From Deferrisomatales bacterium (GTDB lineage: Bacteria > Desulfobacterota > Deferrisomatia > Deferrisomatales > JACRMM01): a stretch of 59,586 bases of DNA. Made by a program: the position numbers and the translations under genes. Below, one piece after another: positions 15,054 to 58,878 of the stretch. How positions within the stretch are numbered: position 1 is the first letter of the stretch; the number at the start of each line of letters is the position of its first letter. Below the pieces are notes generated by a model. The model worked only from the letters and a program-made list of their open reading frames with translations, was not told the origin of the DNA and ran no database searches. The DNA lies in NCBI GenBank assembly GCA_033551855.1, contig JAWSUI010000020.1:1-59586 (forward strand). The letters run 5' to 3'.

Positions 15054-15081
15054 CGACAGCGTACGTTCGGGAGCCTTGAAC

Positions 15082-16545: not shown

Positions 16546-16646
16546 ACCGCCCGGCCGGCGGCCCCTGGCCGTTGGTCGAGCGATCCCTCAGGAGTCCCGG
16601 GTTTCCGGTGGGGCACCGATAGCCAGCAACCAAAGGCCGACAGCCA

Positions 16647-40211: not shown

Positions 40212-40661
40212 ATGGCGGCGTGGGATCCGTTGCGAGAGTTGGAGAGGCTGCGCAGGGAAATGGACCGCATCTTCGAGGGCGTTTCCCCTGCGCGTACCTG
40301 GTCCCTGGGGTTCCTGCCCGGCACGGCGGCCCGTCAATATCCCCGGGTGAACATCGCGGAGGACGCCGACGGGTACGTGGTGGAGGCCCTGGCCCCCGGG
40401 GTCGACCCGACCACGTTGGACCTGAGCGTCAAAGATAACGTGCTCACCATTTCGGGCGAGAAGAAGGCGCCCGAAGGGGTCCGGGCCGAGGCGTTCCACC
40501 GGAGCGAGCGGTCGGCAGGGCGTTTCGTGAGGGCCGTGGAGCTTCCGGACGATCTGAACGCCGAGCAGGTGAAGGCGGCCTACACGGACGGCATCCTCCG
40601 GGTGAACCTGCCGAAGGCGGAGCAGGCCAAGCCCCGGCGGATCGAGATCGACCTCCGTTGA
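40212..40661 (+). CDS. Hsp20/alpha-crystallin small heat-shock protein
   Basis: YPRVNI, LTISGEK, HRSER..GRFVR, AAYTDGIL, KPRRIEI. Confidence 0.95.
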   Translation: MAAWDPLRELERLRREMDRIFEGVSPARTWSLGFLPGTAARQYPRVNIAEDADGYVVEALAPGVDPTTLDLSVKDNVLTISGEKKAPEGVRAEAFHRSERSAGRFVRAVELPDDLNAEQVKAAYTDGILRVNLPKAEQAKPRRIEIDLR

Positions 40662-40681
40662 AGAGGGGGAGGAGACCAGCC

Positions 40682-41080
40682 ATGAACGAGATCGAGAAGA
40701 CCGTGCCGGAGAGCAGAGGCGAGGTGAGCCAGGCCCAGGAGGTGACGAGGCAGCCGGATCGGTACGCCCTGCCGCCGGTGGACATCTGGGAGGAAGAGGA
40801 CCGGCTGGTGGTGCTCGCCGACCTGCCCGGGGTCGACCGAGAGGGACTGTCGGTGCACGTGGAGCAGGGCATTCTCACGATCGAGGGGAGGGTGCGTCGC
40901 GACGTGCCGGGCAACCTGCTCCGGCAGGAGTTCGCCCTGCTGCCCTTCTTCCGGCAGTTCCGGATCACCGAGGAGGTCGACCCGGAGAAGATCCGGGCGG
41001 CGTTGAAGAACGGAGTGCTCCGCCTGGACCTCCTCAAGGCCGAGAAGGCCAAGCCACGGCAGATCCCGGTGGAGGTGTAG
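40682..41080 (+). CDS. Hsp20/alpha-crystallin small heat-shock protein
   Basis: PPVDIWE, ADLPGV, LTIEG, ALKNGVL, KPRQIPV. Confidence 0.95.
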   Translation: MNEIEKTVPESRGEVSQAQEVTRQPDRYALPPVDIWEEEDRLVVLADLPGVDREGLSVHVEQGILTIEGRVRRDVPGNLLRQEFALLPFFRQFRITEEVDPEKIRAALKNGVLRLDLLKAEKAKPRQIPVEV

Positions 41081-41102: not shown

Positions 41103-41136
41103 GCGGGGGAGGCGAAGGCCTCCCCCGCTCGTTTTT
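41103..41136 (+). terminator. Rho-independent terminator
   Basis: GCGGGGGAGGC-GAAG-GCCTCCCCCGC followed by TCGTTTTT. Confidence 0.8.
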
Positions 41137-41157
41137 CCGGCACCGTGCGCGCAGGTT

Positions 41158-41234: not shown

Positions 41235-44200
41235 ATGAACGCGAGCCCACCCTCCACTACCCCTCCGCAGGAAGAGCCCCGGGCGGCGACCCGGCGCCGT
41301 TTCGGGCGTGTGCTCGCCGCCGCCGCCCTCCTGGCCCTGTTCCTCGGCGTGGGCCTGGCCCTCCTTCCCTCTCTGCTCTCGAGCGGTTGGTTTCGGGGGC
41401 TCGCCGCGGGGCGGGCATCGGAGGCCCTTGGCAGACCGGTGGTGGTGGAGGCGTTGCGTCTGGCCTGGTCCGGCCGTATTCTGGTGGAAGGCCTCCAGGT
41501 CGCCGACCTGCCGGAGTTCTCCCCCGAGCCCCTGCTGACCCTCGACCGCCTCGACCTCTCGCTGGCCCCCTGGGGGCTCCTGCGGTCCCGCCTGCGGGTG
41601 GAGGCGGAGCTCTCCGGTCTCCGGGTGCGGCTCGTCCGGAACGAAGCCGGGGGCACCAACCTGGAGGCTCTGGCGGGCCCGCCCCCCGGCCCTGCGCCGG
41701 AGGACCCTTCCCGACCTCGGGAGCCGGGTCGCGCGGCGGGCCCGTTCCCGCGGGAGGTCTCGGTGCGGTTTCGGGTCGACGGCGCCGCCCTGGAGGTGGA
41801 GGACCGGGCTGCGGGGCGGCAGGCGGCGCTGCGGGAAGTGGCCGTCTACCTCGACCTGCCGGCCCTGGGCGCGCCCCTGACCGCCTCGATCTCGGGGAAC
41901 CTGGAGGCCGGCGGTGGTGCCCCCCTGCCGGCGAGCGCCCGGGTTCTCCTGGAACGGTGGTGGGACCCTCACGGGGAGTTGGACCTCGCGTCGGCCTCGG
42001 CCCGCGCCGAAGCGCGCTTCCCGGGACTGGAGGCAGACCTGGAGGCAGACCTCGCCGCCGGCGCGGCCCGCGGGGGACTCCGCGTGGACCTCGCCCGGGT
42101 GCTGGCTGCGGCATCGCCCTTCCTGCCCTCCGGCCTCGCCCCGAAGGCGCTGGAGGGCACCCTGGCTGCCGACCTCCGCGCCGTCGGCCGCGCCGGAGAG
42201 GAGCTTGCCTTCGAGGCCGCCCTGGAGGGAGACGGCCTCCGGGTGGAGGGCCCCCCGCTCGGGGCGGGAAGGGCCGTGGGGCCCCTGCGGGTGCGGGCGG
42301 ACCTCCGGGGGCGCGCGGACCCCGCCCGCGGGGTCGCGGAGGTCGGGGAGGGGGTTCTCTCCCTCCAGAGGGGAACGCGCCTCGTCTGGCGGGGGCGAGC
42401 AGAGGGAATCGGCTCGCCGGAGGCCCGGTTCGAGGCCGCTCTGGGACCCTCCGAGGTGGACCTGGGCGAGCTCCTGACCCTGGGGAGGGACTTCCTGCCG
42501 CCGGGGCTGGACATCCGGCTCACCGGCGGGCGGGTCCGACTGACCCGGGCGGCCGCAAGCGGCCCCGTGCCGGGAGCGGGTGTGGAGGGCTTGACCCACG
42601 TGGTCGCCGTGGGGGGGTTGGAGGTCGCCGCGGAGGCCTTCGAGGCCGCCGGGGCGGGGGTGCGCACCCGGGGGCGGCGCCTGCTGCTTTCCCTCGAGAG
42701 CCTGGAGGCCGCCCTCGAGGACTTCCGGCCCCGGAGCGCTGCAGTGGAAGGGTCGCTCTCCATCGACAGCCTGGACGTCCAGGAGCCCGAGCACTTGCGC
42801 GTGGAGGGGTTCCGGCTCGGGGAGCTCCGGGGAGCCCTTTCCGAGGTCGCCTGGGGTCCCGAGGACATCATGGCCCGGGGGGAGCTTCGCCAGACCCTCC
42901 GGGCAGACGCCCTGGAGCTTCCCGGGCGGGCCCGGCTGGCCGGGGTGGAGCAGGGAGTCGACCTCACCTTCGCCCTCGGCCCCGGCGGCGCACTGGAGGC
43001 GACCCTGGAGGACTTCGTGCTCCGGATCACCGCCGCCGAGGCGACGCAAGACGGCGCCGCCGCCGTCCTCGGGGGGGACGGGGCACCCCCCGGCCTGGCC
43101 TTGACCGCGCGCCGGGCCCGGGTCTCGGGCTCCCTGCTGGCGCCGGGCCCCCCAGCCGCCGAGGCGTCGCTGGACGGGGCCGAGCTCTCGGCCGGGGCGC
43201 TGCGGGCCACCTCGGGCGACACCTCGGCCCGGGTGCGCGGCCTGAGCGCGGCCCTGGACGGGGTGCGGGTCTCCCTGCGGGAGGGATTCCCCGAGCGGGC
43301 GGCCCTCCGGGCCCGGGCTAGGGCCGCGGAGGTCTCCCTGACGGGTCCGACCGAGGCTGTCGTCAGAGACCTCGCCCTTTCCGGGCTTTCGGTGGAGGCC
43401 GGCGGGCTCCGGCCGACCGAGGGCGCCCTCCTCGGCGTGGCGGGCTGGGTGACGCTGGACCAGCACGTGTCCGTAGGGGAGGCAGCGGCGGCGGGCCGCG
43501 GGCGGGTGGAGGGCCTCCGGCAGGAACTCCGCACGGAGGTCCGCCTGGACGCCGGGCCTACGGCGGAGGTCTCCGGGGGGAGCTTCTCCCTCGCGGCCGA
43601 CCGGGTCGACACACAGCTCCCCGAGGACCCCGTGGGTGGCGTGCCCCTCCGGGCCGAGGCCCGGTGGGAGGCGGTGCGCCTCTCGGCGAAGGGCCCCGGG
43701 GAGCCCCTCAGGGTGGACGTCGAAGGACTCCGCGCCGAGGCGGAGACCGGGGCGTTCCTGAGGGCCGCCCTCCGGGCCGACGCCCGGGACCTGGGTGCGG
43801 AGGGTTTGGAGGCGTCCGGCGAAGTGCACTTGGACCTGGCTCGGGCGGCACAGGCCCTGCCGTCGAGACGCGGCCCGGGCACGCTCACGGGGAGCGCCGC
43901 CGCCAGCGGGGAGGTGGAGGGCCGCCTCCCGGCCCCGGGGGAGCTCGAAGCCCTCCGGCACCGGCCGGAAGCCTGGGCGGAGGCCCCGCTGCCCTTCCTG
44001 ACCCGAGCCGCCGTTCAGTTGCGCCTCGAGGGGCTGGGGGCCGACCTCCCCTTGGGAGGAACGGGAGGCCGGGCGGCGGGTCGCCTGGCCTTCGCGGGGG
44101 TCGAGACCCTCGAGCCCGTCTGGGTCCGCGTCGAGGACCGCGGCCGCACGCTGGCCCTGGGGGGAGAGCTCGTGGGGAGGGTCGAGGCCCTGCCGGTGGC

Positions 44201-45500
44201 CGGGGACCTCCCGGATCGCCTGGGGGAGCCCCTGCGATTGCGCCTCGGTCTCCGGGCAGCGGGCGCAGCCGACGGCAGCCTGGAGGCCCGGCAATTCCTC
44301 GAGGCCGAGCCCCTGGCGCTGCGCCAGGAGGCGGAGCTCCGTGTCCTGGGGCTCGACCGGTGGCTTCGCCAAGGCCTTGGCCGGCCCCCCGCCCTGGCGC
44401 TCGGACTCCTGGAGGGCCGCGGGGGGATCCGGGTGAGCCTGGGAGGGGATCCCGCCACCTCCGGTCCGGCCCCGGGAGGGGCGTCCCTGCACGGGCCCCT
44501 GGAGGCCGGGGCCGAGGCGACCCTGCTCCGTGGAGAAGAGCTCGCCGCCACGGCCTTTCTCCGGGCCGGCGGCGCCTCCCTCCGGTGGGGGGAGACGGCG
44601 GCAGACGGCCTGTTCGCGGATGTGACCCTGGAGAAGCGCTACGCCCTGGCCCGGGTCGCGGCGGACGCCCCTCCCTCGCCTCCCTGGCTCTCCCGGGCGG
44701 TCCTCGGAGCGCTGGACCAGGACCTCGGCGGGGCCCCCTCGACCCAGCGCGCCCCGCCGAGGCCGGCCCGGTTCGCGTCCACGAGCCGGATCGGCCTGGA
44801 CCGGCTGCGCTGGGGGGGCGGGCCCGTATCCCTGGAGGCCCGAAACCTGCAGTTGGAGGTCGGCTTGCCCGACGGCCTCCCCTGGGTCGAACGGATCGAG
44901 CTCGGCCTACTTGGGGGCTCCGCGGTCGGCGCCGTCGGGGCGCGGGGAGGCCGGGACGGCGAGCTCCAGGCGGTGGCCCGCTTCGCCTTCACGGGCCTCG
45001 ACGCAGCCCTCCTGGCCCCCGGGGCCCTGGGGCCGGTGGGCGGGGACGAAGACGGCGAGCTGAGCGGGCGCTTTTCCGTGGCCCTCCCCCTGGAGTCCGA
45101 CGCGGAGGCCTTCCTGGGGGCGGCGCAGGCGGAGCTCGCGCTCACCCGCATCGGCTCCCGGGTGCTCGAGCGGGCCCTGTACGCCCTGGACCCGGGGGAG
45201 AGCAACGAGGCGGTGGTGCGCCAGCGGCGGCTGGTGCGCCTGGGAGGCCCCCGGTGGGTGCGGGCCCAGGTACGCGACGGGAACCTCTCCGTCGAAGGGG
45301 AGGTGGAGGCGGGGGGCGTCCGTCTGGCGCTTCCCCGCCTGGAGCGCCTGCGGGTGTCCCAGCTCCCCGGGCTCGAGGGGCTCGGGGAGGCCCTGGAGGC
45401 TTTGTTGCCTCTGCGGGGGGCCTTGGAGGCGGTCCGAGCGGACGTGCTGACGGTGGACGACGCCGGAATCCTGCGGTTCGAGAGAGGAGGACTGCCGTGA
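41235..45500 (+). CDS. Large AsmA/TamB/YdbH-superfamily (bridge-like) protein, 1421 aa
   Basis: N-terminal TM anchor followed by AsmA-type ASEALGRPVVV..LQVAD..LVRNEAGGTNL; long alternating beta-strand-like sequence; followed by a DUF1318-type gene. Confidence 0.7.
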   Translation: MNASPPSTTPPQEEPRAATRRRFGRVLAAAALLALFLGVGLALLPSLLSSGWFRGLAAGRASEALGRPVVVEALRLAWSGRILVEGLQVADLPEFSPEPLLTLDRLDLSLAPWGLLRSRLRVEAELSGLRVRLVRNEAGGTNLEALAGPPPGPAPEDPSRPREPGRAAGPFPREVSVRFRVDGAALEVEDRAAGRQAALREVAVYLDLPALGAPLTASISGNLEAGGGAPLPASARVLLERWWDPHGELDLASASARAEARFPGLEADLEADLAAGAARGGLRVDLARVLAAASPFLPSGLAPKALEGTLAADLRAVGRAGEELAFEAALEGDGLRVEGPPLGAGRAVGPLRVRADLRGRADPARGVAEVGEGVLSLQRGTRLVWRGRAEGIGSPEARFEAALGPSEVDLGELLTLGRDFLPPGLDIRLTGGRVRLTRAAASGPVPGAGVEGLTHVVAVGGLEVAAEAFEAAGAGVRTRGRRLLLSLESLEAALEDFRPRSAAVEGSLSIDSLDVQEPEHLRVEGFRLGELRGALSEVAWGPEDIMARGELRQTLRADALELPGRARLAGVEQGVDLTFALGPGGALEATLEDFVLRITAAEATQDGAAAVLGGDGAPPGLALTARRARVSGSLLAPGPPAAEASLDGAELSAGALRATSGDTSARVRGLSAALDGVRVSLREGFPERAALRARARAAEVSLTGPTEAVVRDLALSGLSVEAGGLRPTEGALLGVAGWVTLDQHVSVGEAAAAGRGRVEGLRQELRTEVRLDAGPTAEVSGGSFSLAADRVDTQLPEDPVGGVPLRAEARWEAVRLSAKGPGEPLRVDVEGLRAEAETGAFLRAALRADARDLGAEGLEASGEVHLDLARAAQALPSRRGPGTLTGSAAASGEVEGRLPAPGELEALRHRPEAWAEAPLPFLTRAAVQLRLEGLGADLPLGGTGGRAAGRLAFAGVETLEPVWVRVEDRGRTLALGGELVGRVEALPVAGDLPDRLGEPLRLRLGLRAAGAADGSLEARQFLEAEPLALRQEAELRVLGLDRWLRQGLGRPPALALGLLEGRGGIRVSLGGDPATSGPAPGGASLHGPLEAGAEATLLRGEELAATAFLRAGGASLRWGETAADGLFADVTLEKRYALARVAADAPPSPPWLSRAVLGALDQDLGGAPSTQRAPPRPARFASTSRIGLDRLRWGGGPVSLEARNLQLEVGLPDGLPWVERIELGLLGGSAVGAVGARGGRDGELQAVARFAFTGLDAALLAPGALGPVGGDEDGELSGRFSVALPLESDAEAFLGAAQAELALTRIGSRVLERALYALDPGESNEAVVRQRRLVRLGGPRWVRAQVRDGNLSVEGEVEAGGVRLALPRLERLRVSQLPGLEGLGEALEALLPLRGALEAVRADVLTVDDAGILRFERGGLP

Positions 45501-46129
45501 TCGGAATCCCCCGACGGAATGGCTGGCGGGGCCGGGCCCGGCCGGCCGTCGCCCTTGCCCTGGCCCTCGCCCTGGGATCCGGCGGCGGGTGCACCCTGGC
45601 GCGGGTCCAGGTGGACGTCGTGAGCGAGCGGACGGCCCTGGAGAACCAGATCCTCGGAAGCTACAACGCCCTCGACGCCGAGATGCACCTCGTCGCCTCG
45701 GTGCGGGGGGTGGACTCCTCCGGGCGCATCCGGGAGCCCCCGCCCCGGAGCCGGGAGGCGCGGGACGCCACCCTGGCGCTCCAGGTGATGGCTTTCCACG
45801 AGGACGACGTGGCGGCCTTCAAGCGCCTGGGGTGGGCCGGCGAGGGCTTCGACGGGCTCCTGGCGGCCTTCCCCGCGGAGCGGGGTGCCGCCCCCTCCGA
45901 CCTCGAGGACTTCGCCGCCCGCACCTCGGAGGAGGAGCTCCGAGCGGTCCTGACCGAGGTCAACCGCGCGCGGGAGGCCGTGATGGAGAGGATCGTGCAG
46001 ATCAACGAGGACCTGACGCCGGAGGACCTGCCCATGGTGCGCAGGGTCTTCGGACGCCTCAACGCCGAGGGCGCTCTGCCCGGCGAGCGCGTCCAACTCG
46101 ACGACGGTACCTGGACGGAGAAGCCGTGA
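45497..46129 (+). CDS. Lipoprotein with DUF1318 (YdbL-like) domain
   Basis: GTGA overlap; lipobox-like GGG-C32; GWAGEGFDGLL..EVNRAR..ALPGERVQLDDGTWTEK matches the YdbL pattern. Confidence 0.75.
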   Translation: MIGIPRRNGWRGRARPAVALALALALGSGGGCTLARVQVDVVSERTALENQILGSYNALDAEMHLVASVRGVDSSGRIREPPPRSREARDATLALQVMAFHEDDVAAFKRLGWAGEGFDGLLAAFPAERGAAPSDLEDFAARTSEEELRAVLTEVNRAREAVMERIVQINEDLTPEDLPMVRRVFGRLNAEGALPGERVQLDDGTWTEKP

Positions 46130-49100
46130 GTGCCCGGTTGCCCCTTCTCCCCCTCCTCGCGGCGGCCGGCCTCGCGGCGCTGGCCCTCACCCCGACCGCC
46201 CCACGAGCAGAGCCCGCCGACCCGCCCCGGACCGGCGCCGGGCGTCTGCCCCTGGCCGTGCCGGTCCACGAGCCGGTCCAGGTCACCGCCGAAGCCGACC
46301 CGATCGCAGGCCTCGCGGTCTCCCCGGACGGCCGGTGGCTCGCCTACGCCGCGGGCTCACCGGGGAGCCGGGACCTGTGGCTGCGATCCGCCGACCCCAA
46401 CCGCGTGGTGCTCCCCCGCCGCCTCACCTCCGCCCCCGGGGACGAGACCGCGCCGGCCTTTTCCCCGGACGGGCGGAGCCTCGCCTACGTGGGGACGAGC
46501 CACGACGCCCGGGGAGACCTCTTCCTCCTTGCCCTGGACGGGGACGGGTCCCCTGCGGGGGAACCCCGGCGCCTCACGGGCAGGGAAGCCGGCGCCGGCT
46601 CCCCCGCCTTCGCCCGGGACGGCTCGGCCCTCTTCTTCCACCGGGCCCACCCCGGCGAGATGGAGCCCACGCTGGCGGTCCTGCCCCTGGGCCGGGGCGG
46701 TCCCGGTGCGAGCCCGGAGGCTGGCCCGCCCCGGGACCTGGAAGACTCGGGGACGGGCCGTCCGGTCCGGGGGGCGTCCCCGTCCGTCTCCCCCGACGGC
46801 AGCCGGCTCGCCTTCGTGCACCGCACGCCGCACCCCGGGGGAAGCATCTCCCTGCTCGACCTGGCGACCGGGCAGGTCTTCCCCCTCACCGAGGGTCCCG
46901 CCCTGGACTCGGCCCCGGCGTGGACGCCCGAGGGCGACCTCCTCTTCGTGCGCCGGGAGCTCGACACGGACGGGGACGGCTGGGTCACGCCCGAGGACCA
47001 CGGCGTGCTGATGCGGCTCGCCCGGGGCACCCTGCCGGGAGGGCCGTCCCCGGTCCACCCCCGTCCGGGCGCCGACCGCCTCCCCCGCCCCTACCCCTTG
47101 ACCCCCGCCACCTACGGGGCCGACCTGCCGGCGTTGCCCGCCGCTCCGGCCGAGCGGCATCTGTTCTTCGTCTCGGGGCAGCGCGGGGCCGCCAACGCGT
47201 GGAGCCTCCCGCGAGAGGGGGCGGTCCCCCACCGGATCGGCCCGGCGGATCAACTCGCGCTGGCGGAGGAGATCGATCGGGAGCTGTTCCCCCCCGCCCC
47301 GCTCCTGGCGGCGGCAGCCTACGAGAAGGTGCTGGAGCGCTTCGGCGGAGCCGGTCGTCCGGCAGCCCGTGCGGCGCTGGGGGCCGGGCTCGCCTACCGG
47401 GCAGCGGGTCTTTCCGGAGCCGCCGAGACCGCTTTCGCCCGGGTCGCCGCCGATCACCCCGGGGTGGAACCGGAGGCCTCCCTCGCCCGGGTCCGGCTGA
47501 CGGCCCTCACCGCTCGGCGGAAGGAACGGGAAGCCCGGGAGCGGGGGGACGCCGGCGGCGCCCGGGCAGCCCTGGAGGAGGGGCTGCGCGCCCTCGAGGC
47601 CGACGCCGCCGGGGGCGGACCCGAGGTGGTTTCCGCCCGGGCAGGCGTCGAGGGCGCCCGCCTTCTCCTCGACCTAGGTCGCGATGCCGACTCCCTCCTG
47701 GCGGCCCTGGCGGCGGCGGACCGGGTGGCCCGGGACTTCCCGGGCGCGCGGTTCGAGGCCGCCGAGGCCCTCTTCCTGCGGGGAGAGGCTTTCGGCCGGG
47801 TGGGCCGGCCCGAGGCAGTGGAAGGGGCCTACCGGCAGGTCCTCGAGCGCTACCCCGAGGTGGACGAGTGGGGAGACAGGGCCGTGGAGCGGCTCCTCGA
47901 TCTGATCGCGGCCGGCGCCGGGGAGTCCCTCGACGCCCGGGTGGCGGCGCTCCGCCAAGCGGCGGCGGAGGCCCGGGAGCGCCACCCGCGTCTCGCCATG
48001 GGGGCGCTCAACCGCGCCGGGGACCTCCTCTTCGCCGGGGACGAGTGGGCCCGGGCCAAGGCCGCCTACCGGCAAGTGCTCGACGAATTTCCGGAAGTGG
48101 CCACCCAGACCGCGGCAGCCCGGCTCTCGTTGGCCGAGATCCTCTACCGGGAGGAGCGCTTCCGGCAGGCCCTGGAGCTGTACGAGGCCGAGCTGCACCT
48201 GCGCCCACGGGAAGACCGCATCTACCGCCTGGCCCACCGGGGCTACCTGCGCCGCACCGCCGAGGCAGGGGCGGCCCTGCTGCGGACGGGGGAGGCCGTC
48301 TCGGCCCGCAGCCTCTTCCGTGACCTCCTCCGGTATGACAACCGGGCCGTAGAGGGCCACCGGGGGTATGTCCAGGCCTCAGCGGCCCTGGGTGGTCTGG
48401 AGCCGGTGCTCGCCGAGTACCGGGCCCGGGCCCACGCCGACCCAGGGGATGCCGTCGCCCTCTACGCCGTGGGCCTCGCCCTCACCTACCGGGAGACGCG
48501 GGGGGCCCTCGAGGAGGCTCGGGACTGGCTCGTCCGGGCGATCGGGCGCCAGGGGCAGGTGGAGTACTTCCACCAGACCCTGGGGTACGTGAACGAGGTC
48601 CTGGAGACGGTCCACGGGGAACGGGGCGGGCTGGAGCGCGCCCTGGAGGCCTACCGGCGGGCCGCCTTCCTGAACGACCCGGAGGCGAACCCCCCCAACG
48701 CCGCCCACCTCCTCCTCAACCAGGGCAATGCCGCCTTCCTCCTGGGCCAGTATTCCGCCGCCGACCGCTCCTACGCCGCGCGCCGGGCGTCAGGGATCCC
48801 CTTCGACCTCCCCGACGCCGAGCTCCTCTTCTACCGCCGCTTCGGAGAGGCCGCTTTTCAGGTGCGAGACCCCTCCCGGGCGGCCGAGCTCTACGCCCGG
48901 GCCTTGGGGCTCCTGGAAGAGCGGGCCGACCCCCGGGCCGCCTCCCGAGCCTACGACCGCCTGGTGCGGGCGGTCCTGGAGCGCCACCTGGGGCCCCCCG
49001 CCCCCGGAGCCCCCCTGGACGAGGCGTCTCGGCGGCTGGCCGAGCGGCAGTCCGGGCTCCGGGAGCGCCTCTTTCTCCTCACGCGGGCCGCGCCCGCTTC

Positions 49101-52100
49101 GGGGAAGGACGTCCCCTCCCCCCGCTGGGAGGTTTATCGGGCCGGGGTCGAGGCGCTGCTCGCGGAGCAGGAGGTCCTCCATCGGGATCTCGCGGCCCGG
49201 GAGACCCGCAGGAGCGCCGAGGGTGGCCGGGAGCTACGGGAGTCGCTGGCCCACCTCGCCCGGGGCGTCCGGGACTCCCTGCGGGCGCCCCTTCGGTTCG
49301 CGGAGCTGCGGGCCGAGCTCTGGGACCGCCTGGCCCTGGCCCGCCAGGAGGCCGGTCAGTGGGGGGCGGCTGCCGAGGCCTTCGGGGAGGCCTTCGGGGC
49401 CAACCGGCGCCTGGGTCGGGAAGAGAACCTCGGGCGCAACCGCCGCTCCGAGGCCTACTGCCTGTATCAGCTCGCCGCCGAGGGGTCCGGGAAAGAGCGG
49501 ACCGCCCTGCTCGAGCGGTCCGCGGAAGGCTTCCGGGAGGCCCGGGAGCTGGTGCGTCGCCACGGCGTGCCGGCGCACCGGGGGGACCCCGGGGGGCGGG
49601 CCCTGGTGGACCTGCGGCTGGAGGTGCCCCTGGACCCCGCCGGGGCCACCCAGGCGGCCTTCGGGTTCTCGGCCGAGCAGGAGGAGCGTCTGGCCGAGGC
49701 TTTCCTGGCCCGCATCGCGCTGGAGCTGGGGGAGCTCGGGGAAGCCGAGGCCGGCCTCGGCCTCCAGCTCGCTCGGTACCCCCCGGGGGACCCGGTGGCC
49801 GAGGGCGACCGCTTCGGTGTCTCGCTGCTGGCCCACCGTGCGGGGCTGCTGGCCTACGCGCGGGGGGAGCTCACCGAGGCCTTCGAGCGTTTCGCGCGCT
49901 CCGCGGACCTCTCCCGGGGGGCGGGGGGGGCGGTCAGTACGGCGCTCAACGTCGCGGGGATGACCCGCGCCCTGGGCCGCCTCCCCCAGGGGCACCCCGG
50001 GCGGGGGGCCCTGCTGCGGGAGCTCGAAGCCCAGGACCGGCGGGCCTCCGCCGCCCTCCGGCACGACCCGGTGGCCTCCGGGCAGCCCCTCACCGTCTTC
50101 TTCCACACGGCCCTGGGGCTCTTCTGGCTCGGCGAGGGTCTCCCGCAAGCGCCCGGCGGGGCCGGGCTCGAGGTGGGGGCCGCTCGGGGCCGGGCTCTGG
50201 CTCGGGCCGCGGTCCACTTCTACGCAGGGCTTCGGGCCGCAGGAGACGGGGAGCTCTTGCTGGAGCGAGGCAGCCGCGAGGCCCGGGCCCGGGCAGCCCG
50301 CCTCCACCTGGCCCTGGCCCGGACCCTGGAGGGCCTGGGGGATTCGGGTGAGGGGCATGACACCCGCGCCTTGGAGCTGGCCCGGCGGGGCCTGCTCCCC
50401 GACCTGGAGTGGAGGGCACTGGCGGGCTTGGGCCGCCTCGCCGAGGCCCTGGCCGCCCTCGAAACCGTCACCCCCCTGCGGGCCCACGCGGCGCCGGGGG
50501 AGATCCCCGGCACCTTCGCCCCTCTGGTGGAGGCCCTGTGGGAGACCGGGGACCCGGAGGCCGCCTTCGACCTGGCGGAGCGCCTGGCCGAGCTGGAACG
50601 GGTGCACCGGCTCTCCCCCTTCACGGCAGGGGCGCTCACCGGACCGGAGCGGGAACTGGCCCGGGCCTCGTACCCGCGCCTCCTGCGCGTGGAAGAGCTT
50701 CGCGCCCAGGCGGACGCGTCCCGGGGCGAGGAGCGCGCCTACCGGGCGGAGATGCTCGAGCGGGAACGGCGCCTCCTGGAGGCCCAGCTCGGGCCGGAAC
50801 GGGAGGGGCTCCCTGCGCTGGCGGCGGCCCAGAGCCGGCCGGACCTCCAGGAGGCGGTCCTCGTCCTCCTGGGGCTCGCGGTCCACGCCGAGGAGGCGGC
50901 AGAGGCAGCCTCCCGCGCCCTGGACCCGGGGGAGGCCGCCCGGAGGCGGGCGGAGCACCAGGAGCTCGTGGAGCGGTTTTGGCGGCTGCGGGCGGCAGGG
51001 GCGGCACTTCGCGAGGAGGGCCAGGCGCCGGGGGCGCTGGCCCTGCTGGGCCCCGAGCCGGCCACGGCCGCCGAGCTCGTGGAGACCCTGCCCGAGGGCA
51101 CGACGCTCCTTCGGGCCGTGGCCCGACCGGGGGGGGGATTCCTCCTGTTCCGGCTCGGCGCCGACGCCTTCGACCTGGAAGAGGTCCCGTCCCTCGACCC
51201 CTCCCTGCTGCCCGCCCAGGGAGCGGTCGCGGCGTTCGAGAACCCCGAGGCGGTGCTCGCGTGGGCGCGGGGCCCGGCCCCCCAGCCGGGGGGAGCGGCC
51301 GCCGCCCTGAGCGCCACCCACTGGCTGCGCTCCCACCAGGCCCGCAAACCCCTGCGCCGCTCCCTGCTGGTGGGGGGAGAGGTGCCGGTGGACACCCCGG
51401 CCGGCTTCTCTCCGGTACCCCTGCCCGCGGCGCCTACCCCGGGAGACGTCCTGGGCGCGGCCCCGTCGGCCCACACCCTGTCGCTCCCCGGCCCGGTGCG
51501 CCTGGCGTCTTCCGTACCCACCCGCGCCGGGGAGACGGCCCGGGCCTTCCCCGGCGCCGACCTCCCGGGGGGCCGGAGCGTGCCGCTGGCAGGCTTCGTC
51601 GGCCTGCTGGACCGGGCCTCCCTGGCAGTTCTCGGGGTGGTCGAAGAGGAGGCGGTCTACCCGGCCGCCCACCTCCTCAGCCTGGCGGGGTGCCCCTCGG
51701 TGGTCGTCCCGGCGGCCTCCCCTGGGGACGGCTTTCCCTCCCCCGAAGCCTTCCTCCGGGCCTACGCCCAGGCCTCGCCCGAACTGGCCGCCGGGACCCC
51801 TTGGGGAATCCTGGGGTTCGGGGGGCTCTCGCCCGAGGACGCCCGGGAGCTCGCCCGCTCCCAGTTCCTCCGGTACGCGGCGGCCGCCCAGGCCGCCCTC
51901 CGTGCCGGGCGGGCGGCGGGGGCCTTGCGGGCCGCCGAGGACGCCCTGTGGGTCACGGAGGAGATCCCGGACCTGCAGGTCCACCGTGCCGAACTCCACC
52001 GCTTCGCCCGGGAGGCGGCCTGGGCCGCCGGGCTCCCGGCGGACGCCGAGCGCCACGCCCAGGCCCTGGTCGACGCCGCTCGGGAGGTGGCCCCCTACTC

Positions 52101-54708
52101 CCCCGCCCACGCCGACGCCCTGCTCCGGCTCGGGCTCGTGCAGGCCCGCCTCGAGCGCTACGGAGAGGCGCTACCGGCCCTGGAGGAGGCGGCAGAGATG
52201 CTGGCGAACCTCGAGCTCGGGCCCGAGGAGGTCGAGGCCCTGGCCAGCCTGGGGGCCGTGCTCGAGGAGGCCACCCGGTACGAGCAGGCCCTGGGAGTCT
52301 TCCAGACCGCCGCCGAGCGCAGCCGGGACCTGGGACAGGCCGCCCTCCTGGCCGCCCAGCACGCGAGCCTGGGACGGGTCTACGACCTGCGCCTCAACCG
52401 CTGGGCCCGGGCGAAGCAGAGTTACGAGCAGGCCCTGGAGCTCTCCGACGCCGCCGGCGACCTCCACGGGGTCGTCCAGGCGCTGGTGGACGTGGGCCGG
52501 TGCGAGCGCTTCCTCGGGAGCTTCCCCGCGGCCGAGGAACGCTACTCCCTGGCCCTCGAGCTCCTGGACGAGGATCCCGACCCGGTGCTGCGCGCCAAGG
52601 TGCTCATCGAGCAGGCCAACAACGCCTGGTTCCAGGCCCGCTACCAGGAGGCCTTCGACCTCCAGCGCGAGGCCCACGGCCTGAGCCGCGAGAGCGGGTG
52701 GGCCCTCGGGGAGGTCGTGGCCCTCAACACCTCCGGCCTCACCTGGTGGACGTTGGGGGACCACGAGCGGGCTCTCCGGGAGCTCACTCGGGCCCTGGAC
52801 CGGGCACGGGAGCTTCCCGGCCGCGACGACGAGGTGGCCACGACCCTCAACAACCTGGGTCTCGTCTACCGGGAGACGGGGCGCTTCGACGACGCCCGGG
52901 GCGTCCTGGAAAAGGCCCTGGCGATCGACCGGCGCCTCGGGTCCCGCTGGGCCGTGGCCTACGACCTGCGAAACCTCGGGCTCACCCACCTGCGGGAGGG
53001 AGACCCCGGGACGGCGCTGCCGCTCCTGCGCGAGGCGGCCGCGCAGGCGGGGGACATCGGCGACCGGGTCCACGAGGCCAAGGCCCGTCTGGCCCTGGGC
53101 GAGGCCCTGGCCGCAGGGACGGAGGGCTCCAACGACCGCGAGGCCCGGGAGGCCTTCGAGGCGGCCCTGGAAGGGGCCCGGTCCCTCTACCTGCGGGAGG
53201 TGGAGTGGAGGGCCCTCCACGGCCTGGGGCTGCTGGAGCGGTCCGCGGGGCGCCTCGGGGAGGCCCGCCGGCTCCTGGCCGAGGCGGTCGACGTGGTGGA
53301 GGGGGTTCGCGCCGAGATCCGCCTGGAGCAGCTCCGGGACGGCTTCCTCACCGACAAGATGGCCGTGTACGAGGCGCTGGTCTCGGTGCTCGTGGCCCTG
53401 GGTGACCCGGCGGGTGCGTTCGAGGTGGCGGAGCGGTCCCGCGCCCGCAACTTCATCGACCTCCTGGGCAACCAGCGCCTCACCCTGAAGGGGGCCGTGG
53501 AGCAGGCGCTCTACGACCGGCAGGCGGAGCTCAAGGCCCGCCTGGACGAGCAGCTCGCCCTGGCCGCCCAGGCGCCCGAGGGGGAGGAGCGCGCCGCCTA
53601 CGAAGCCGCGGCGGCGCGCCTGCGCGACGAGCACCGGGACCTCCTCCTGGACATCCAGGCGCGCCACCCGGAGCTCGCGTCCCTCGTCTCCGTGCAGCCC
53701 CTGGGGGAGGCCGAGGTGCGGGCCCAGCTGGAGCCCGGCGTCGCCCTGCTGGCCTACTACCTCTTGGAAGACGAGGTCCTGTGCTGGATCGTCCGACCCG
53801 AAGGGCTCGCCCTGGTGCGCACCCGGGCGGCACGGGGGGTCCTGGAGGAGGACGTCTTCGCCTACCGGCGGCTCATCCAGAACCTGGAGCCCGTGGAAGC
53901 GCTCTCCCGCGCCCTCCACGGCCTTCTCGTCGATCCCGCAGCCCCCCACCTGGAGGGGGTTCACACCCTGGGAGTGATCCCCCACGGCGCCCTCCACTAC
54001 CTGGCCTTCGCCACCCTCTCTGGCCCCGAAGACCACGTGGCCGACCGCTGGCCGCTGTTCTACCTCCCGAGCGCGAGCGTGCTGCGCTACTCTCTGGAGC
54101 GCCGAGACCCCGACGCCAACCGCCGGGTGCTCGCCATCGGCAACCCCGACCTGGGCGACCCGGCCCTGGAGCTCCCGTTCGCCGAGCAGGAGGTGGGCAC
54201 GATCCGCTGGAACTTCCCGGAGGTCACGGTGCTCACAGGGGAGCGGGCCACCGAGACCTGGGTGACCGAGAACCTGGGAGACTTCGGGATCCTCCACGTG
54301 GCTTCCCACGGCGAGTTCGACCCCCTCAACCCCCTCTTCTCGGCACTGAAACTCGTCCCGGACTCCCACAATGACGGGGACCTCCAGGCCGCCGAGGTCT
54401 TCGCCCTGGAGCTGCGGGCCGATCTGGTGGTGCTGAGCGCCTGCCAGACGGGCCTCGGCACCGTGACCCGGGGAGACGACGTGCTCGGCCTCAACCGCGC
54501 CTTCCTCTACGCGGGAACCCACACGGTGGTCTCCAGCCTCTGGCGGGTAAGCGACGTCTCCACGGCAGTGCTGATGAAGCACTTCTACCGCCAGTACGCG
54601 GTGCGCAACAAGGCGGAGAGCCTGCGCGCGGCCCTCCTCCACGTGAAGACCCGTTACCCCCACCCCGGCTACTGGGGGGCCTTCACGCTGGTCGGGGACT
54701 GGGAGTGA
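46126..54708 (+). CDS. Giant exported TolB-like propeller/TPR/CHAT (caspase-like) protein, ~2860 aa
   Basis: GTGA overlap at 46126; signal peptide; PD40 repeats (SPDG..LAY); many TPRs; C-terminal CHAT with LHVASHG (His codon 54307), LSACQTG (Cys codon 54442), VSSLW and HPGYWGAF. Confidence 0.9.
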   Translation: MSARLPLLPLLAAAGLAALALTPTAPRAEPADPPRTGAGRLPLAVPVHEPVQVTAEADPIAGLAVSPDGRWLAYAAGSPGSRDLWLRSADPNRVVLPRRLTSAPGDETAPAFSPDGRSLAYVGTSHDARGDLFLLALDGDGSPAGEPRRLTGREAGAGSPAFARDGSALFFHRAHPGEMEPTLAVLPLGRGGPGASPEAGPPRDLEDSGTGRPVRGASPSVSPDGSRLAFVHRTPHPGGSISLLDLATGQVFPLTEGPALDSAPAWTPEGDLLFVRRELDTDGDGWVTPEDHGVLMRLARGTLPGGPSPVHPRPGADRLPRPYPLTPATYGADLPALPAAPAERHLFFVSGQRGAANAWSLPREGAVPHRIGPADQLALAEEIDRELFPPAPLLAAAAYEKVLERFGGAGRPAARAALGAGLAYRAAGLSGAAETAFARVAADHPGVEPEASLARVRLTALTARRKEREARERGDAGGARAALEEGLRALEADAAGGGPEVVSARAGVEGARLLLDLGRDADSLLAALAAADRVARDFPGARFEAAEALFLRGEAFGRVGRPEAVEGAYRQVLERYPEVDEWGDRAVERLLDLIAAGAGESLDARVAALRQAAAEARERHPRLAMGALNRAGDLLFAGDEWARAKAAYRQVLDEFPEVATQTAAARLSLAEILYREERFRQALELYEAELHLRPREDRIYRLAHRGYLRRTAEAGAALLRTGEAVSARSLFRDLLRYDNRAVEGHRGYVQASAALGGLEPVLAEYRARAHADPGDAVALYAVGLALTYRETRGALEEARDWLVRAIGRQGQVEYFHQTLGYVNEVLETVHGERGGLERALEAYRRAAFLNDPEANPPNAAHLLLNQGNAAFLLGQYSAADRSYAARRASGIPFDLPDAELLFYRRFGEAAFQVRDPSRAAELYARALGLLEERADPRAASRAYDRLVRAVLERHLGPPAPGAPLDEASRRLAERQSGLRERLFLLTRAAPASGKDVPSPRWEVYRAGVEALLAEQEVLHRDLAARETRRSAEGGRELRESLAHLARGVRDSLRAPLRFAELRAELWDRLALARQEAGQWGAAAEAFGEAFGANRRLGREENLGRNRRSEAYCLYQLAAEGSGKERTALLERSAEGFREARELVRRHGVPAHRGDPGGRALVDLRLEVPLDPAGATQAAFGFSAEQEERLAEAFLARIALELGELGEAEAGLGLQLARYPPGDPVAEGDRFGVSLLAHRAGLLAYARGELTEAFERFARSADLSRGAGGAVSTALNVAGMTRALGRLPQGHPGRGALLRELEAQDRRASAALRHDPVASGQPLTVFFHTALGLFWLGEGLPQAPGGAGLEVGAARGRALARAAVHFYAGLRAAGDGELLLERGSREARARAARLHLALARTLEGLGDSGEGHDTRALELARRGLLPDLEWRALAGLGRLAEALAALETVTPLRAHAAPGEIPGTFAPLVEALWETGDPEAAFDLAERLAELERVHRLSPFTAGALTGPERELARASYPRLLRVEELRAQADASRGEERAYRAEMLERERRLLEAQLGPEREGLPALAAAQSRPDLQEAVLVLLGLAVHAEEAAEAASRALDPGEAARRRAEHQELVERFWRLRAAGAALREEGQAPGALALLGPEPATAAELVETLPEGTTLLRAVARPGGGFLLFRLGADAFDLEEVPSLDPSLLPAQGAVAAFENPEAVLAWARGPAPQPGGAAAALSATHWLRSHQARKPLRRSLLVGGEVPVDTPAGFSPVPLPAAPTPGDVLGAAPSAHTLSLPGPVRLASSVPTRAGETARAFPGADLPGGRSVPLAGFVGLLDRASLAVLGVVEEEAVYPAAHLLSLAGCPSVVVPAASPGDGFPSPEAFLRAYAQASPELAAGTPWGILGFGGLSPEDARELARSQFLRYAAAAQAALRAGRAAGALRAAEDALWVTEEIPDLQVHRAELHRFAREAAWAAGLPADAERHAQALVDAAREVAPYSPAHADALLRLGLVQARLERYGEALPALEEAAEMLANLELGPEEVEALASLGAVLEEATRYEQALGVFQTAAERSRDLGQAALLAAQHASLGRVYDLRLNRWARAKQSYEQALELSDAAGDLHGVVQALVDVGRCERFLGSFPAAEERYSLALELLDEDPDPVLRAKVLIEQANNAWFQARYQEAFDLQREAHGLSRESGWALGEVVALNTSGLTWWTLGDHERALRELTRALDRARELPGRDDEVATTLNNLGLVYRETGRFDDARGVLEKALAIDRRLGSRWAVAYDLRNLGLTHLREGDPGTALPLLREAAAQAGDIGDRVHEAKARLALGEALAAGTEGSNDREAREAFEAALEGARSLYLREVEWRALHGLGLLERSAGRLGEARRLLAEAVDVVEGVRAEIRLEQLRDGFLTDKMAVYEALVSVLVALGDPAGAFEVAERSRARNFIDLLGNQRLTLKGAVEQALYDRQAELKARLDEQLALAAQAPEGEERAAYEAAAARLRDEHRDLLLDIQARHPELASLVSVQPLGEAEVRAQLEPGVALLAYYLLEDEVLCWIVRPEGLALVRTRAARGVLEEDVFAYRRLIQNLEPVEALSRALHGLLVDPAAPHLEGVHTLGVIPHGALHYLAFATLSGPEDHVADRWPLFYLPSASVLRYSLERRDPDANRRVLAIGNPDLGDPALELPFAEQEVGTIRWNFPEVTVLTGERATETWVTENLGDFGILHVASHGEFDPLNPLFSALKLVPDSHNDGDLQAAEVFALELRADLVVLSACQTGLGTVTRGDDVLGLNRAFLYAGTHTVVSSLWRVSDVSTAVLMKHFYRQYAVRNKAESLRAALLHVKTRYPHPGYWGAFTLVGDWE

Positions 54709-54847
54709 AGGGCCGGGGTTCGGGGTTCGGGCCGCCGTTTCGTGGCGCGCCGGGGCGAGACCCCGGGAGCAGGTTGCGGTACACTGGGCACGGCAGACGG
54801 GCCGCCGCCGCACCGGCGTTCCCGACGAACACCCGGAGGACACCCCC

Positions 54848-55363
54848 ATGAGAAGACGTTTCCCCCTCCTCCTGGCCCTGCTGGCCGCGGCCGCCGGCGG
54901 CGCCGCGCTGGCCCAGACGACCCTGTGGGTCTCCTCGACGGGAACCAAGCTCAAGGCCGACACCCGGGCCACCTCGGCGACGGTCGCCGACCTCCCCCTG
55001 GGGGCCGAGCTCCGGGTCCTGGAGGCCCGGGACGCTTGGTACCGGGTCGCCGGCCCCGGCAGCGCAGAGGGCTGGATCTACCGGGGCAAGGTGACCGAGA
55101 CGCCCCCGGGCGCGGCTCCGGCCGAGGGGGGGGGGCTCCTCGGCGGCCTCACCGGCCGGAGCACCATCCAGGCGGCCTCGGCGGACACCTCCCGGAGCAT
55201 CCGGGGCCTCTCGCCGGAGACCACGCAGTACGCGGACGGCGCCGGCACACCCCAGGAGCACCGGGAGGCCCTGGACCGGGTCCTCGCCCTGACGGTCTCG
55301 GAGGACGAGCTCGAGCGGTTCCTCCAGGACGGCCGCATCGGCGAATACGCGATGGGGAGGTGA
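54848..55363 (+). CDS. Exported bacterial SH3 (SH3b) domain protein
   Basis: Signal peptide; GAELRVLEARDAWYRV..EGWIY; C-terminal SIRGL..ELERFLQDGRIG. Confidence 0.8.
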   Translation: MRRRFPLLLALLAAAAGGAALAQTTLWVSSTGTKLKADTRATSATVADLPLGAELRVLEARDAWYRVAGPGSAEGWIYRGKVTETPPGAAPAEGGGLLGGLTGRSTIQAASADTSRSIRGLSPETTQYADGAGTPQEHREALDRVLALTVSEDELERFLQDGRIGEYAMGR

Positions 55364-55368
55364 CGACC

Positions 55369-56319
55369 GTGAAGACCGCAACCCGCCTCCTCGCCCTTGT
55401 CCTGGCCGCCCTCCTGCTCCCCGCCGCCGCGGGGGCCTTCCTGGACCGCCTCGGCCGGGGCGTCCTCCAGGAGCTCGCCCCCAAGCCGGCCGAGGCCCCT
55501 CCGCCGGCACAGCCCGACGACAAGGCCCCCGCGGAGCCGTCGAGGCGTCAGGACCGCACCGGCCTGATCCTCGGCGGGGTCACGGACCTCCTGGCCGGGG
55601 CCGCCGAAGTTCCCTACGAGACCGAGGTGGTCATCGGCGAGAGCCTCGCGCTGGAGGGCTTCGCCCGCTATGGCCGGCCGGTGGAGGACCCGGACCTCCA
55701 GCGCTACGTCAACCGGGTGGGCAACGCCGTGGCGCGGAACTCGCCGCGGCCCGAGATCCCCTACCGTTTCGTGGTGGTCCAGGGCGAGTTGTACAACGCC
55801 TTCGCCTGCCCGGGCGGGATCGTATTCGTCAGCTCCCAGCTCGTCCGCTCCATGGGGGACGAAGCGGAGCTGGCCGCGGTCCTGGCCCACGAGGTGGGCC
55901 ACGTGGCCCACCGGCACGCCCTCCAGTCCATCCGCCGGGCGCAGTTCTTCTCCGGGGTCGGACAGCTCACCGCCGCCACCATGAGGGGGGAGAAGGGCAG
56001 GGAGTTCCAGGGGATGATCGGCGACCTCCAGGGGGTGCTCTTCGACCGGGGCCTGGACCGGAACATGGAGTTCGAGGCCGACGCCACGGGGATGGAGACC
56101 GCCTACCGCACCGGCTACGACCCGGCCGGGATGGTGCGGGTGCTCGAGATGCTCCAGCGCAACGAGGCCACCGCCCGGAAGGGCGGCTCGTGGTTCTCCA
56201 CCCACCCGCCCCTGGGCGAGCGCCTCTCCCGGCTCCGCACCCAGCTCGCCCAGTACCCCGACGCCGCCTCCCTGGCCCGGGTGCCCGAGCGCTTCGCCCC
56301 CTACTCCGCACGGCTCTGA
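55369..56319 (+). CDS. M48 family zinc metalloprotease (BepA/YfgC-like)
   Basis: Signal peptide; YNAFACPGG, ELAAVLAHEVGH, EFEAD, STHP. Confidence 0.92.
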   Translation: MKTATRLLALVLAALLLPAAAGAFLDRLGRGVLQELAPKPAEAPPPAQPDDKAPAEPSRRQDRTGLILGGVTDLLAGAAEVPYETEVVIGESLALEGFARYGRPVEDPDLQRYVNRVGNAVARNSPRPEIPYRFVVVQGELYNAFACPGGIVFVSSQLVRSMGDEAELAAVLAHEVGHVAHRHALQSIRRAQFFSGVGQLTAATMRGEKGREFQGMIGDLQGVLFDRGLDRNMEFEADATGMETAYRTGYDPAGMVRVLEMLQRNEATARKGGSWFSTHPPLGERLSRLRTQLAQYPDAASLARVPERFAPYSARL

Positions 56320-56363
56320 CGGGCACCGGCACGTCCGGCCCGCCGCTCACGAAAGGAGACGAG

Positions 56364-56552
56364 ATGCCGACCCTGACGATCGAAGGGCCCCCGATCCCGG
56401 ACCTGGGGAGGAAGAGGGCGCTGGTCAAGGCCGCCACTGCCGCCGCCGTCGAGGCCTACGGCCTGCCGGCAGAGATCATCGTGGTGGTCATCAAAGAGAA
56501 CGCCCCCGAGAACGTCGGCGTCGGGGGTCACCTGATCGCCGATCGCGACTAG
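56364..56552 (+). CDS. 4-oxalocrotonate tautomerase family protein
   Basis: Starts M-P (catalytic Pro1), 62 aa, ENVGVGG motif; AAGGAG RBS. Confidence 0.88.
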   Translation: MPTLTIEGPPIPDLGRKRALVKAATAAAVEAYGLPAEIIVVVIKENAPENVGVGGHLIADRD

Positions 56553-56609: not shown

Positions 56610-56977
56610 ACCGTCCCCCGCGTCGGCCACGCGGGGGGCGACACCACGCCTTCGCGTGCGAATCAGACCGCGCAAGTTTCAATCCACGCCCCCCACGCGG
56701 GGGGCGACGTGTCACCGCCGCCCGTCTTTTTCATTGCCGGGAGTTTCAATCCACGCCCCCCACGCGGGGGGCGACGCGGGGCAGCCCGGAGATGGCCGAC
56801 CGGATCGCGTTTCAATCCACGCCCCCCACGCGGGGGGCGACAGCCCAACGTCGTGATTGCGTGTTGACCCGAACCTGTTTCAATCCACGCCCCCCACGCG
56901 GGGGGCGACTGGAGCCGGTCGAGGTCCACGAGGGCTAGGGGCACGTTTCAATCCACGCCCCCCACGCGGGGGGCGAC
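56610..56977 (-). CRISPR. Type I-C CRISPR array: 5 intact 33-bp repeats, 1 degenerate distal repeat, 5 spacers of 33-35 bp
   Basis: Plus-strand repeat GTTTCAATCCACGCCCCCCACGCGGGGGGCGAC at 56676, 56743, 56809, 56877 and 56945; degenerate copy ends at 56642; transcribed orientation is GTCGC..ATTGAAAC. Confidence 0.98.
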
Positions 56978-57154
56978 GACCCTTGCGTAAGTGCTTGCTG
57001 TGGCGTCTGTTTCAACACCGAATTCGCGAACCGCAGTTCAGACCCCCGTCAGCGGTTGGACTTTTGCCCGAAGCCAAACCGAACACCCGCTGCCCCACTC
57101 GAAAAACACTCTCTGCGAACCCGCCCGGTGCTCGCTGTGAGCTTGGGGTTCGCG
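56978..57154 (-). promoter_or_regulatory. CRISPR leader
   Basis: Non-coding stretch between cas2 and the first repeat, containing GCGAACC/GGTTCGC motifs typical of I-C leaders. Confidence 0.75.
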
Positions 57155-58522: not shown

Positions 58523-58638
58523 GGCCATTCCATACGGCCGGCAAGGCCGCCCGCCTCTTGCTCCGAGCCCCGGGTCGGAGTAGGGTTCGGCGAGGACGCT
58601 GCCGACCTGCTCCCCCCGCAAAGGACAGAGGCGATCCG

Positions 58639-58878
58639 GTGACGCCGACGGTGTTCACCGACAAGGGCTTCCGATTCCTCTTCTTCTCCCGGGAAGAAGC
58701 CCGGCCGCACGTTCACGTGCAGGGGGCCGAGGGCGAGGCAAAGTTCTGGATCGAACCCCGCGTTGCACTCGCTCGCAGCACGGGCCTGTCGAGCCGCGAC
58801 CTTCGCGTGATCGAGCACATCGTTGAGGAGCGCAGGGATGAGATCGCACGCGCTTGGCACCGACACTTCTCCCGCTGA
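58639..58878 (+). CDS. DUF4160 domain protein (putative type II toxin)
   Basis: PTVF..GFRFLFFSREE..PHVHV..EAKFWIEP..AW..HF pattern. Confidence 0.85.
   Translation: MTPTVFTDKGFRFLFFSREEARPHVHVQGAEGEAKFWIEPRVALARSTGLSSRDLRVIEHIVEERRDEIARAWHRHFSR

Follow-up and report, generated by a model that had tools for sequence, protein, structure and literature searches.

A five-gene system on the + strand of a Deferrisomatales bacterium places an exported giant protein with a CHAT protease domain (g3) directly behind an AsmA/YdbH-like protein (g1) and a DUF1318 lipoprotein (g2), and ahead of an SH3b protein (g4) and an M48 zinc protease (g5). The locus lies in a 59,586-nt forward-strand stretch of contig JAWSUI010000020.1 (GCA_033551855.1), which we call the window and whose positions serve as coordinates throughout. 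The system is real and is spread over several bacterial phyla, and its CHAT-linked lipoproteins carry an S-x-R motif where ordinary lipoproteins of the family carry A-x-A, a swap that is new. We propose, with a probability of about 0.45, that g3 cuts g2 after the motif Arg and frees a YdbL cap from the membrane-anchored part of the lipoprotein, so that the cutting acts as a switch. The co-inheritance of the genes, the intact catalytic dyad of g3 and the motif swap are observed; the periplasmic location, lipid transport, the cleavage, the enzyme responsible and its trigger are predicted.

An earlier note on this DNA had described six co-oriented frames, the first three coupled by overlaps, and both points hold: six open frames run on the + strand between 41235 and 56552, all with a third-position GC content (GC3) of 0.90-0.96, and g1 (41235..45500, 1421 amino acids (aa)), g2 (45497..46129, 210 aa) and g3 (46126..54708, 2860 aa) are joined by GTGA overlaps at 45497-45500 and 46126-46129. 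After a spacing of 139 bp come g4 (54848..55363, 171 aa) and g5 (55360..56319, 319 aa, alternative start at 55369). These two had been described as nearly abutting; the spacing is indeed close, but the frames actually overlap by another GTGA at 55360-55363. N-terminal hydrophobic segments in g1 to g5, judged by hydropathy only, agree with the note's count of five genes out of six with a signal peptide or membrane anchor. Its six-gene operon has to be shortened by one gene: g6 (56364..56552, +, 62 aa), a 4-oxalocrotonate tautomerase DmpI, is a co-oriented bystander: tblastn gave no match for it in the 264 loci retrieved, 27 of them (from about 20 distinct places) with enough sequence beyond the M48 gene to hold it, and the unit therefore consists of five genes, 41235-56319. 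A sigma-70 scan did not find a promoter for this unit. Domains were called with Pfam and NCBIfam models and their cut-offs.

The lipoprotein g2 is built from an invariant Cys32, a strand-like and then a helix-like segment, a linker with the residues S68-V69-R70-G71 (codons at 45698..45709, +; candidate cut site after R70), and a YdbL (DUF1318) domain. The DUF1318 model passes its cut-off in g2 and matches 40 of 40 homologues too, and the comparison with the E. coli YdbL structure 28oj gives a match at E 0.1. A separate ynbE gene is not present; the g1 and g2 frames overlap directly, so there is no space for another gene between them. From position and layout, together with the missing ynbE gene, we infer that the N-terminal segment of g2 plays the YnbE role, and the YnbE family PF13617 has no match in g2.

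Three layouts are seen among DUF1318 loci: two genes, one chain with A-x-A, and one chain with an Arg site plus the CHAT giant. Of 40 further loci, 12 encode the YnbE-like protein and YdbL in two genes, and YdbL there has its own signal-peptide-like start (judged by eye). Among the 37 ordinary DUF1318 fusions that were scored, 36 have an A-x-A inside the chain, which precedes the YdbL core motif by 29-40 residues and mostly has Gln, Glu or Ala after it; four further ordinary fusions escaped the scoring pattern. A-x-A is the signal-peptidase I rule, and the motif looks as if the signal peptide of YdbL had survived the fusion. A literature search aimed at this motif found no description of it in ordinary DUF1318 fusions. 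Ordinary fusions with A-x-A include those of loci L088-L098, L104, L105 and L225-L264, and one in the bacterium's own genome (G000:C62:4846-5448).

In the CHAT-linked type, S-x-R followed by a small residue is present in all 120 scored g2 sequences, 34-42 residues before the same YdbL anchor (30 of the 150 sequences, without a usable anchor, were left unscored), and S-x-R occurs in 0 of the 37 ordinary fusions. A looser count finds the motif in 80/80 close and 80/80 distant loci. A loose A-x-A pattern can be read in 35/120 CHAT-linked sequences, mostly on the S-x-R motif's own letters. Among 82 distant g2 representatives Arg70 is kept in 76, the small residue that follows in 78 and the Ser in 68. 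There are 61 conserved Arg columns in g1 to g5, and Ser at -2 combined with a small residue at +1 is found only for R70 of g2 and R119 of g4. One g2 subgroup (P0270, P0344, P0346-P0353, P0355, P0356) has lost S-x-R-small by decay while its other features persist; the fold of g2 is therefore independent of the motif. In a quick tree of YdbL domains the S-x-R type is set apart by a branch at 96, the groups being partly defined by the search. Recognition of the S-x-R motif by g3 appears somewhat more likely than not.

In another reading, signal peptidase I would still cut g2 after the Ser of [VILT]-x-S, the Arg being incidental and g3 acting elsewhere. The signal-peptidase rule, as generally known, allows Ser at -1 and Val or Thr at -3, and Ser is present in 68 of the 82 distant sequences. 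Against this, the 15-residue stretch ahead of the g2 motif is acidic (charge -1.7) rather than hydrophobic (mean hydropathy -0.1), and the Arg is better kept than the Ser (76/82 versus 68/82). We consider this explanation highly improbable.

The giant g3 begins with a PD40 propeller (residues ~45-365), continues through TPRs to a dead CHAT copy (~1640-1900) and further TPRs, and ends in an intact CHAT domain (~2520-2860). The CHAT family PF12770 matches at E 1.4e-59; the domain comes after TPRs, and the His-Gly and Cys are present. No other CHAT match was found in the bacterium's own genome. Of the 76 terminal CHAT domains that are complete, 75 retain both catalytic residues, His2728 and Cys2773, and from this kept dyad the intact CHAT of g3 is predicted to be proteolytically active. 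The acids E2689 and D2810 are likewise kept in 75/76 and are compatible with a preference for Arg; in other clan CD enzymes acids in comparable regions bind the P1 Arg (PMC4626109, PMC10317155). A separase-type S1 Asp had been considered as proof of Arg specificity in g3 and was dropped, the position being without a clear match.

The internal CHAT copy (51043..51825, +) lacks the His-Gly and the Cys, as do the inner CHAT domains of 44 out of 44 close sequences. A structural model of g3 residues 1380-1930 (mean predicted local distance difference test score (pLDDT) 91.6, predicted TM-score (pTM) 0.92) matches DdvA (the top hit, 8rw5), the TPR-CHAT protein of Craspase, and separase, with a best E of 7.5e-6 and low TM-scores of 0.25-0.36. 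Profiles of the internal and terminal CHAT domains of close homologues match only weakly (E 0.0045 over 54 columns); the inner CHAT of 15 distant giants matches the profile of the active CHAT at E down to 3e-39. The model and these distant homologues therefore identify the internal domain as a CHAT copy and g3 as the product of a tandem duplication. The dead copy, like the motif swap in g2, goes beyond what the earlier note had described.

To place the locus in a wider context, an alignment of g2 was searched against the GTDB collection, which gave relatives in 264 places, the best 80 of which were fetched as close loci. The named records among these relatives are mostly of Desulfobacterales and Desulfovibrionales types, plus NC10 and others. 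The g1 gene lies directly upstream of g2 in 69 of 74 loci with room for it, and g3 lies downstream in 67 of 77 (one of these 67, L024, has only a short piece, and L068 is a 68th by open frame). A full g3 is followed by g4 in 29 of 44 loci, g4 by g5 in 27 of 27, and all five genes are present in 24. Such regularity of order greatly exceeds what chance would give. In genomes with a split operon the missing parts are kept at other places: g3 in 10/10 genomes, g1 in 4/5 and g4 in 14/15, and an M48 gene adjoins the relocated g4 in 14/14. Desulfonema magnum, a culturable carrier, has g1-g2, g3 and g4-g5 at three different sites. In a distant metagenome subgroup, whose query is ~30% identical to g2, the giant lies within 3 kb in 36 of the 51 loci with at least 1.5 kb downstream, and an AsmA-like gene is often found upstream; no adjacent g4-g5 pair occurs there. 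The full five-gene order recurs in genome G444, which belongs to another phylum, and among the Atlas clusters closest to g2 the leading phyla are Spirochaetota, Thermodesulfobacteriota and Bdellovibrionota.

Genome content points in the same direction. In a sample of 301 genomes from the phylum, with a full-length g2-type match defined as E below 1e-50, g1 (by its C-terminal match) and g2 fall in the same 8 genomes, the window's own included, and all 8 have g3; g3 is also found in two less complete genomes (86% and 79%). A further 66 of the 301 have only a weaker, ordinary DUF1318 match, and in these no g3-level match is found. The g4 gene is present in 6 of the 8 carriers, no orthologue having been found in G023 and G064. 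The sample includes 9 genomes from the same family and order, and none of the parts was found in them; plasmid searches with g4 and a g2 relative gave no match. Besides the studied locus, the bacterium's own genome has an ordinary pair, a 1061-aa protein without a Pfam match followed by a DUF1318 lipoprotein; the studied locus is therefore a specialised paralogue of this AsmA-plus-DUF1318 arrangement. The identity matrices of g1 to g4 correlate (rho 0.35-0.87), which is explained by shared ancestry and is therefore not counted as evidence. Functional coupling of g1, g2 and g3 is thus very likely, and the earlier idea of a YdbH/YdbL-type module tied to an exported CHAT giant and an SH3b-M48 pair has found support, through co-occurrence and through a gene order conserved both in the neighbourhoods of close loci and in another phylum.

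The distribution also bears on whether the system is a defence or contact-sensing machine in the manner of DdvA or Craspase, with envelope damage triggering CHAT cleavage and a response, a role that the earlier note had considered. The closest structures are indeed DdvA and Csx29, the distribution is patchy, as the 9 related genomes show, and a CRISPR array and cas1 follow in the window. On the other side, no cas1 match was found in the 264 loci, no neighbour family beyond the five genes recurs across lineages, g3 has no cytoplasmic N-terminal domain, and the genes are retained when scattered, like housekeeping parts. We therefore regard a defence role as very improbable.

The last two genes form an accessory pair. 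In g4 the SH3_3 match (E 1.7e-4) is under the cut-off, and a linker motif S117-I118-R119-G120 separates the SH3b part from a C-terminal helical part, its Arg being invariant (31/31). The exported g5 matches Peptidase_M48 (PF01435, E 8.6e-37) and has HEXXH and a downstream Glu as third zinc ligand; HEXXH is found in the homologues that are long enough, apart from two fused forms without a match, L006 (cut by the locus end) and L058. Its description as BepA-type was not borne out, g5 scoring 101 bits against a BepA cut-off of 570. In five Desulfovibrionaceae-type loci (L006, L027, L028, L039, L058) g4 and g5 are fused as one protein, in which S-S-R-S replaces S-I-R-G. We call the pair accessory because the SH3b search did not find it in 2 of the 8 carriers and because the distant group has no adjacent pair. 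Genome G041 (L082, L128) combines a fused SH3b-M48 protein within the operon with another pair, unfused, at a different place, and several M48 homologues (L063, L071, L074, L077-L079, L131) have twin-arginine-like leaders, judged by eye.

The constant pairing of SH3b and M48 (27/27 in place, 14/14 when relocated) and their fusion raise the question of whether it is the M48 protease instead of CHAT that acts on the Arg-Gly motifs in g4 and g2. In the wider SH3b family, A-A-R-G-[LF] is found by pattern in 50 of 65 members, and this family pairs with M48 without g3, so the g4 motif may serve M48. Two genomes in which no orthologue of g4 turned up, G023 and G064, nevertheless retain the g2 motif, as does the distant group, which has no adjacent g4-g5 pair. 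Cleavage of both motifs by M48 is thus a quite improbable explanation.

The likely partner of g2 in the envelope is g1. Its N-terminus matches DUF748 (E 4.8e-12) and AsmA (E 1e-4), both under the Pfam cut-off, and two g1 homologues pass the AsmA cut-off; the YdbH-like C-terminal family PF11739 has no Pfam match in g1. A membrane anchor is located near residues 22-53 and a conserved C-terminal motif at 1300-1375. Residues 250-1421 are modelled as a single long beta-meander (pLDDT 79.5, pTM 0.61). A TamB/YhdP-type chain was not listed in the fold searches with this model, a result that leaves the fold itself possible. As a lead only, 15 of 30 Atlas feature matches for residues 900-1421 are YdbH-like clusters, the best at 0.93. 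Judging from the domain matches, the model and the neighbouring gene, g1 would be anchored in the inner membrane and span the periplasm. Residues 481-660 of g1, in a low-confidence part of the model, are ~180 extra beta-rich residues absent from most homologues, and may lengthen the bridge.

How such a system might work is suggested by E. coli, where, according to the papers on the YdbH bridge, YnbE joins the last strand of YdbH and YdbL binds the C-terminal helix of YnbE, surplus YdbL blocks the bridge and kills cells that depend on it, and free YdbL is degraded by DegP in vitro (PMC11126948; bioRxiv 10.64898/2026.03.16.712125; PMC12447247). We propose that g2 takes the place of both YnbE and YdbL in a single chain, in which the lipid-anchored strand and helix would complete the groove of g1 and the tethered YdbL domain would cap it. 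If it were never severed, YdbL in such a fusion would act as a lasting cap, and a cut would therefore be needed. The signal-peptidase-like A-x-A in the tether suggests that in ordinary fusions the cap is probably cut off by default, by signal peptidase; in the CHAT-linked clade the cut would have been handed from signal peptidase to g3, and would thereby become conditional. The propeller, the TPR arms or the dead CHAT copy of g3 may sense a cue or dock on g1 or g2, upon which the intact CHAT would cut after the Arg and the freed g2 anchor would join g1. With the same motif, g4 could be a second substrate of g3, whose cutting might release or activate M48 at the cell wall, a step that we put forward more cautiously than the cut in g2. 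The earlier note had named the lipoprotein and the SH3b protein as candidate CHAT substrates, a suggestion that gains sequence support from the shared S-x-R-small motif.

In its full form, a periplasmic caspase-family protease would serve as the on-switch of a lipid bridge, cutting a one-chain YnbE-YdbL precursor and triggering a wall-bound protease through the SH3b protein, in a cascade that gates lipid flow from inner to outer membrane. We hold this wider picture only tentatively, with less confidence than the cut in g2 itself. For YdbH, the control described so far is limited to YdbL dosage and possible DegP turnover. The three natural layouts lead to the prediction that YdbL has to be released by a cut, which a clade spanning several phyla would have placed under a caspase-like enzyme. 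The proposal names a candidate substrate and bond for a bacterial CHAT protease outside defence, and the A-x-A finding bears on many ordinary fused DUF1318 lipoproteins.

Several observations, in addition to the giant-free A-A-R-G motifs beside M48, weigh against cleavage of g2 by g3 as a switch. The N-terminus of g2 resembles YnbE no better in profile comparison than do 33 control windows, and the g1 model matches only generic curved sheets among solved structures, such as ApoB100 and porins (Foldseek, VIA-align). One g2 has Tyr after the motif Arg. The Arg preference of g3 is a candidate only, as read from its sequence, and the P1-binding Asp of separase presumably aligns with Ala2814 of g3. 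Several carrier genomes supplied rows of the search alignments, and related genomes do not count as independent. According to one of the E. coli studies, YdbL also assists docking (bioRxiv 10.64898/2026.03.16.712125), so that its release need not activate the bridge. Finally, the giant of locus L219 lacks the catalytic His, yet g2 there retains S-A-R and the trio of genes persists.

This last locus fits a different role for g3, as mainly a scaffold or assembly factor, with S-x-R docking uncut in the CHAT or pseudo-CHAT pocket and the protease acting on other targets. About 2500 of the 2860 residues of g3 are non-catalytic, the TPR block 630-910 is among its best-conserved parts, and one of its CHAT copies is already dead. 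Opposed to this are the intact dyad in 75 of 76 giants and the ordinary type with its peptidase-like site at the same place, which points to cutting. A scaffold role is a serious alternative, and on balance an unlikely one; we continue to favour cleavage of g2 by g3.

An hsp20 pair lies upstream of g1 at 40212-41080, behind a terminator-like hairpin of 11 pairs with a T run (41103..41138, +) between the pair and g1, which is a consensus match only (7 such sites against 4.8 expected in the region). An hsp20 gene also precedes the AsmA gene, at a distance of a few kb, in nine distant metagenome loci (L162, L177, L191, L197-L199, L201, L210, L219), and in 0/80 closer loci; in L018, L023 and L031, genes for a TPR-CsgG-like lipoprotein and an fn3 protein come before g1. 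Behind the unit are a CRISPR array (56618-56978) of five full 32-nt repeats and one degenerate repeat, cas1 (57488-58621, -) and a short 112-aa cas5-like frame (59176-59514, -), with DUF4160 and DUF2442 genes (58558-59134, +) between cas1 and cas5 on the opposite strand. The tautomerase, the hsp20 pair, an RNase D and CRISPR-Cas were tried as members of the system and rejected by neighbourhood comparison. At 2629-20168 the window has ordinary heavy-metal genes, namely a P-type ATPase, a two-component pair, an ABC permease and a CusABC-like efflux cluster.

No description of the g1-g5 combination was found in the literature searched, most subscription papers and preprint supplements lying outside its scope, and for TPR-CHAT together with the periplasm only DdvA of Myxococcus xanthus came up (PMC11506125); a search with Leptospira locus tags likewise gave no paper. 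Like g3, DdvA is described there as a periplasmic TPR-CHAT protein with a His-Cys dyad, and a signal-induced linker cleavage is proposed for it; that proposal is DdvA's. DdvA itself belongs to a defence island and acts as a transmembrane anti-sigma factor (PMC11506125), and g3 differs from it by its N-terminal propeller, two CHAT copies and lipid-bridge neighbours, with no cytoplasmic anti-sigma domain. The architecture of a TPR-controlled clan CD protease is also shared with Craspase Csx29 and separase, the latter cutting after Arg in unstructured linkers (PMC10317155, PMC4626109). Those two proteins are cytoplasmic or nuclear, unlike g3 with its N-terminal export segment, and g3 stays below the Csx29 model (40.8 bits, cut-off 300) as well as the TolB model (60.7 bits over the propeller part only, cut-off 343).

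Like BepA and LoiP, g5 is an exported M48 domain with HEXXH; unlike BepA (about 480 aa) it has 319 aa and comes with an SH3b protein, either as a gene pair or as a fusion. The SH3b-M48 pair of genome G049 (L130) resembles g4-g5 in being two genes with an Arg-Gly linker motif, and differs in that the motif is A-A-R-G-[LF] and that no g1, g2 or g3 match was found in that genome. Its neighbours are a CHASE2 adenylate cyclase on one side and a FadL-like barrel on the other, and no paper on such a pair beside a CHASE2 cyclase was found.

The nearest known relative is the YdbH-YnbE-YdbL bridge of E. coli, in which an AsmA-like inner-membrane protein likewise comes first, with an outer-membrane-type lipoprotein and a YdbL (DUF1318) domain after it, and control is exerted through the YdbL level and through proteolysis (DegP in vitro), as proteolytic control is proposed here. 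Compared with E. coli YdbH (869 aa), g1 is longer at 1421 aa. The locus has one fused lipoprotein instead of a separate ynbE, and adds a dedicated 2860-aa CHAT protein and an SH3b-M48 pair, in a genome that also has an ordinary paralogous pair. The locus would work like YdbH-YnbE-YdbL and is not a plain member of that system, having no separate YnbE and a protease partner of its own.

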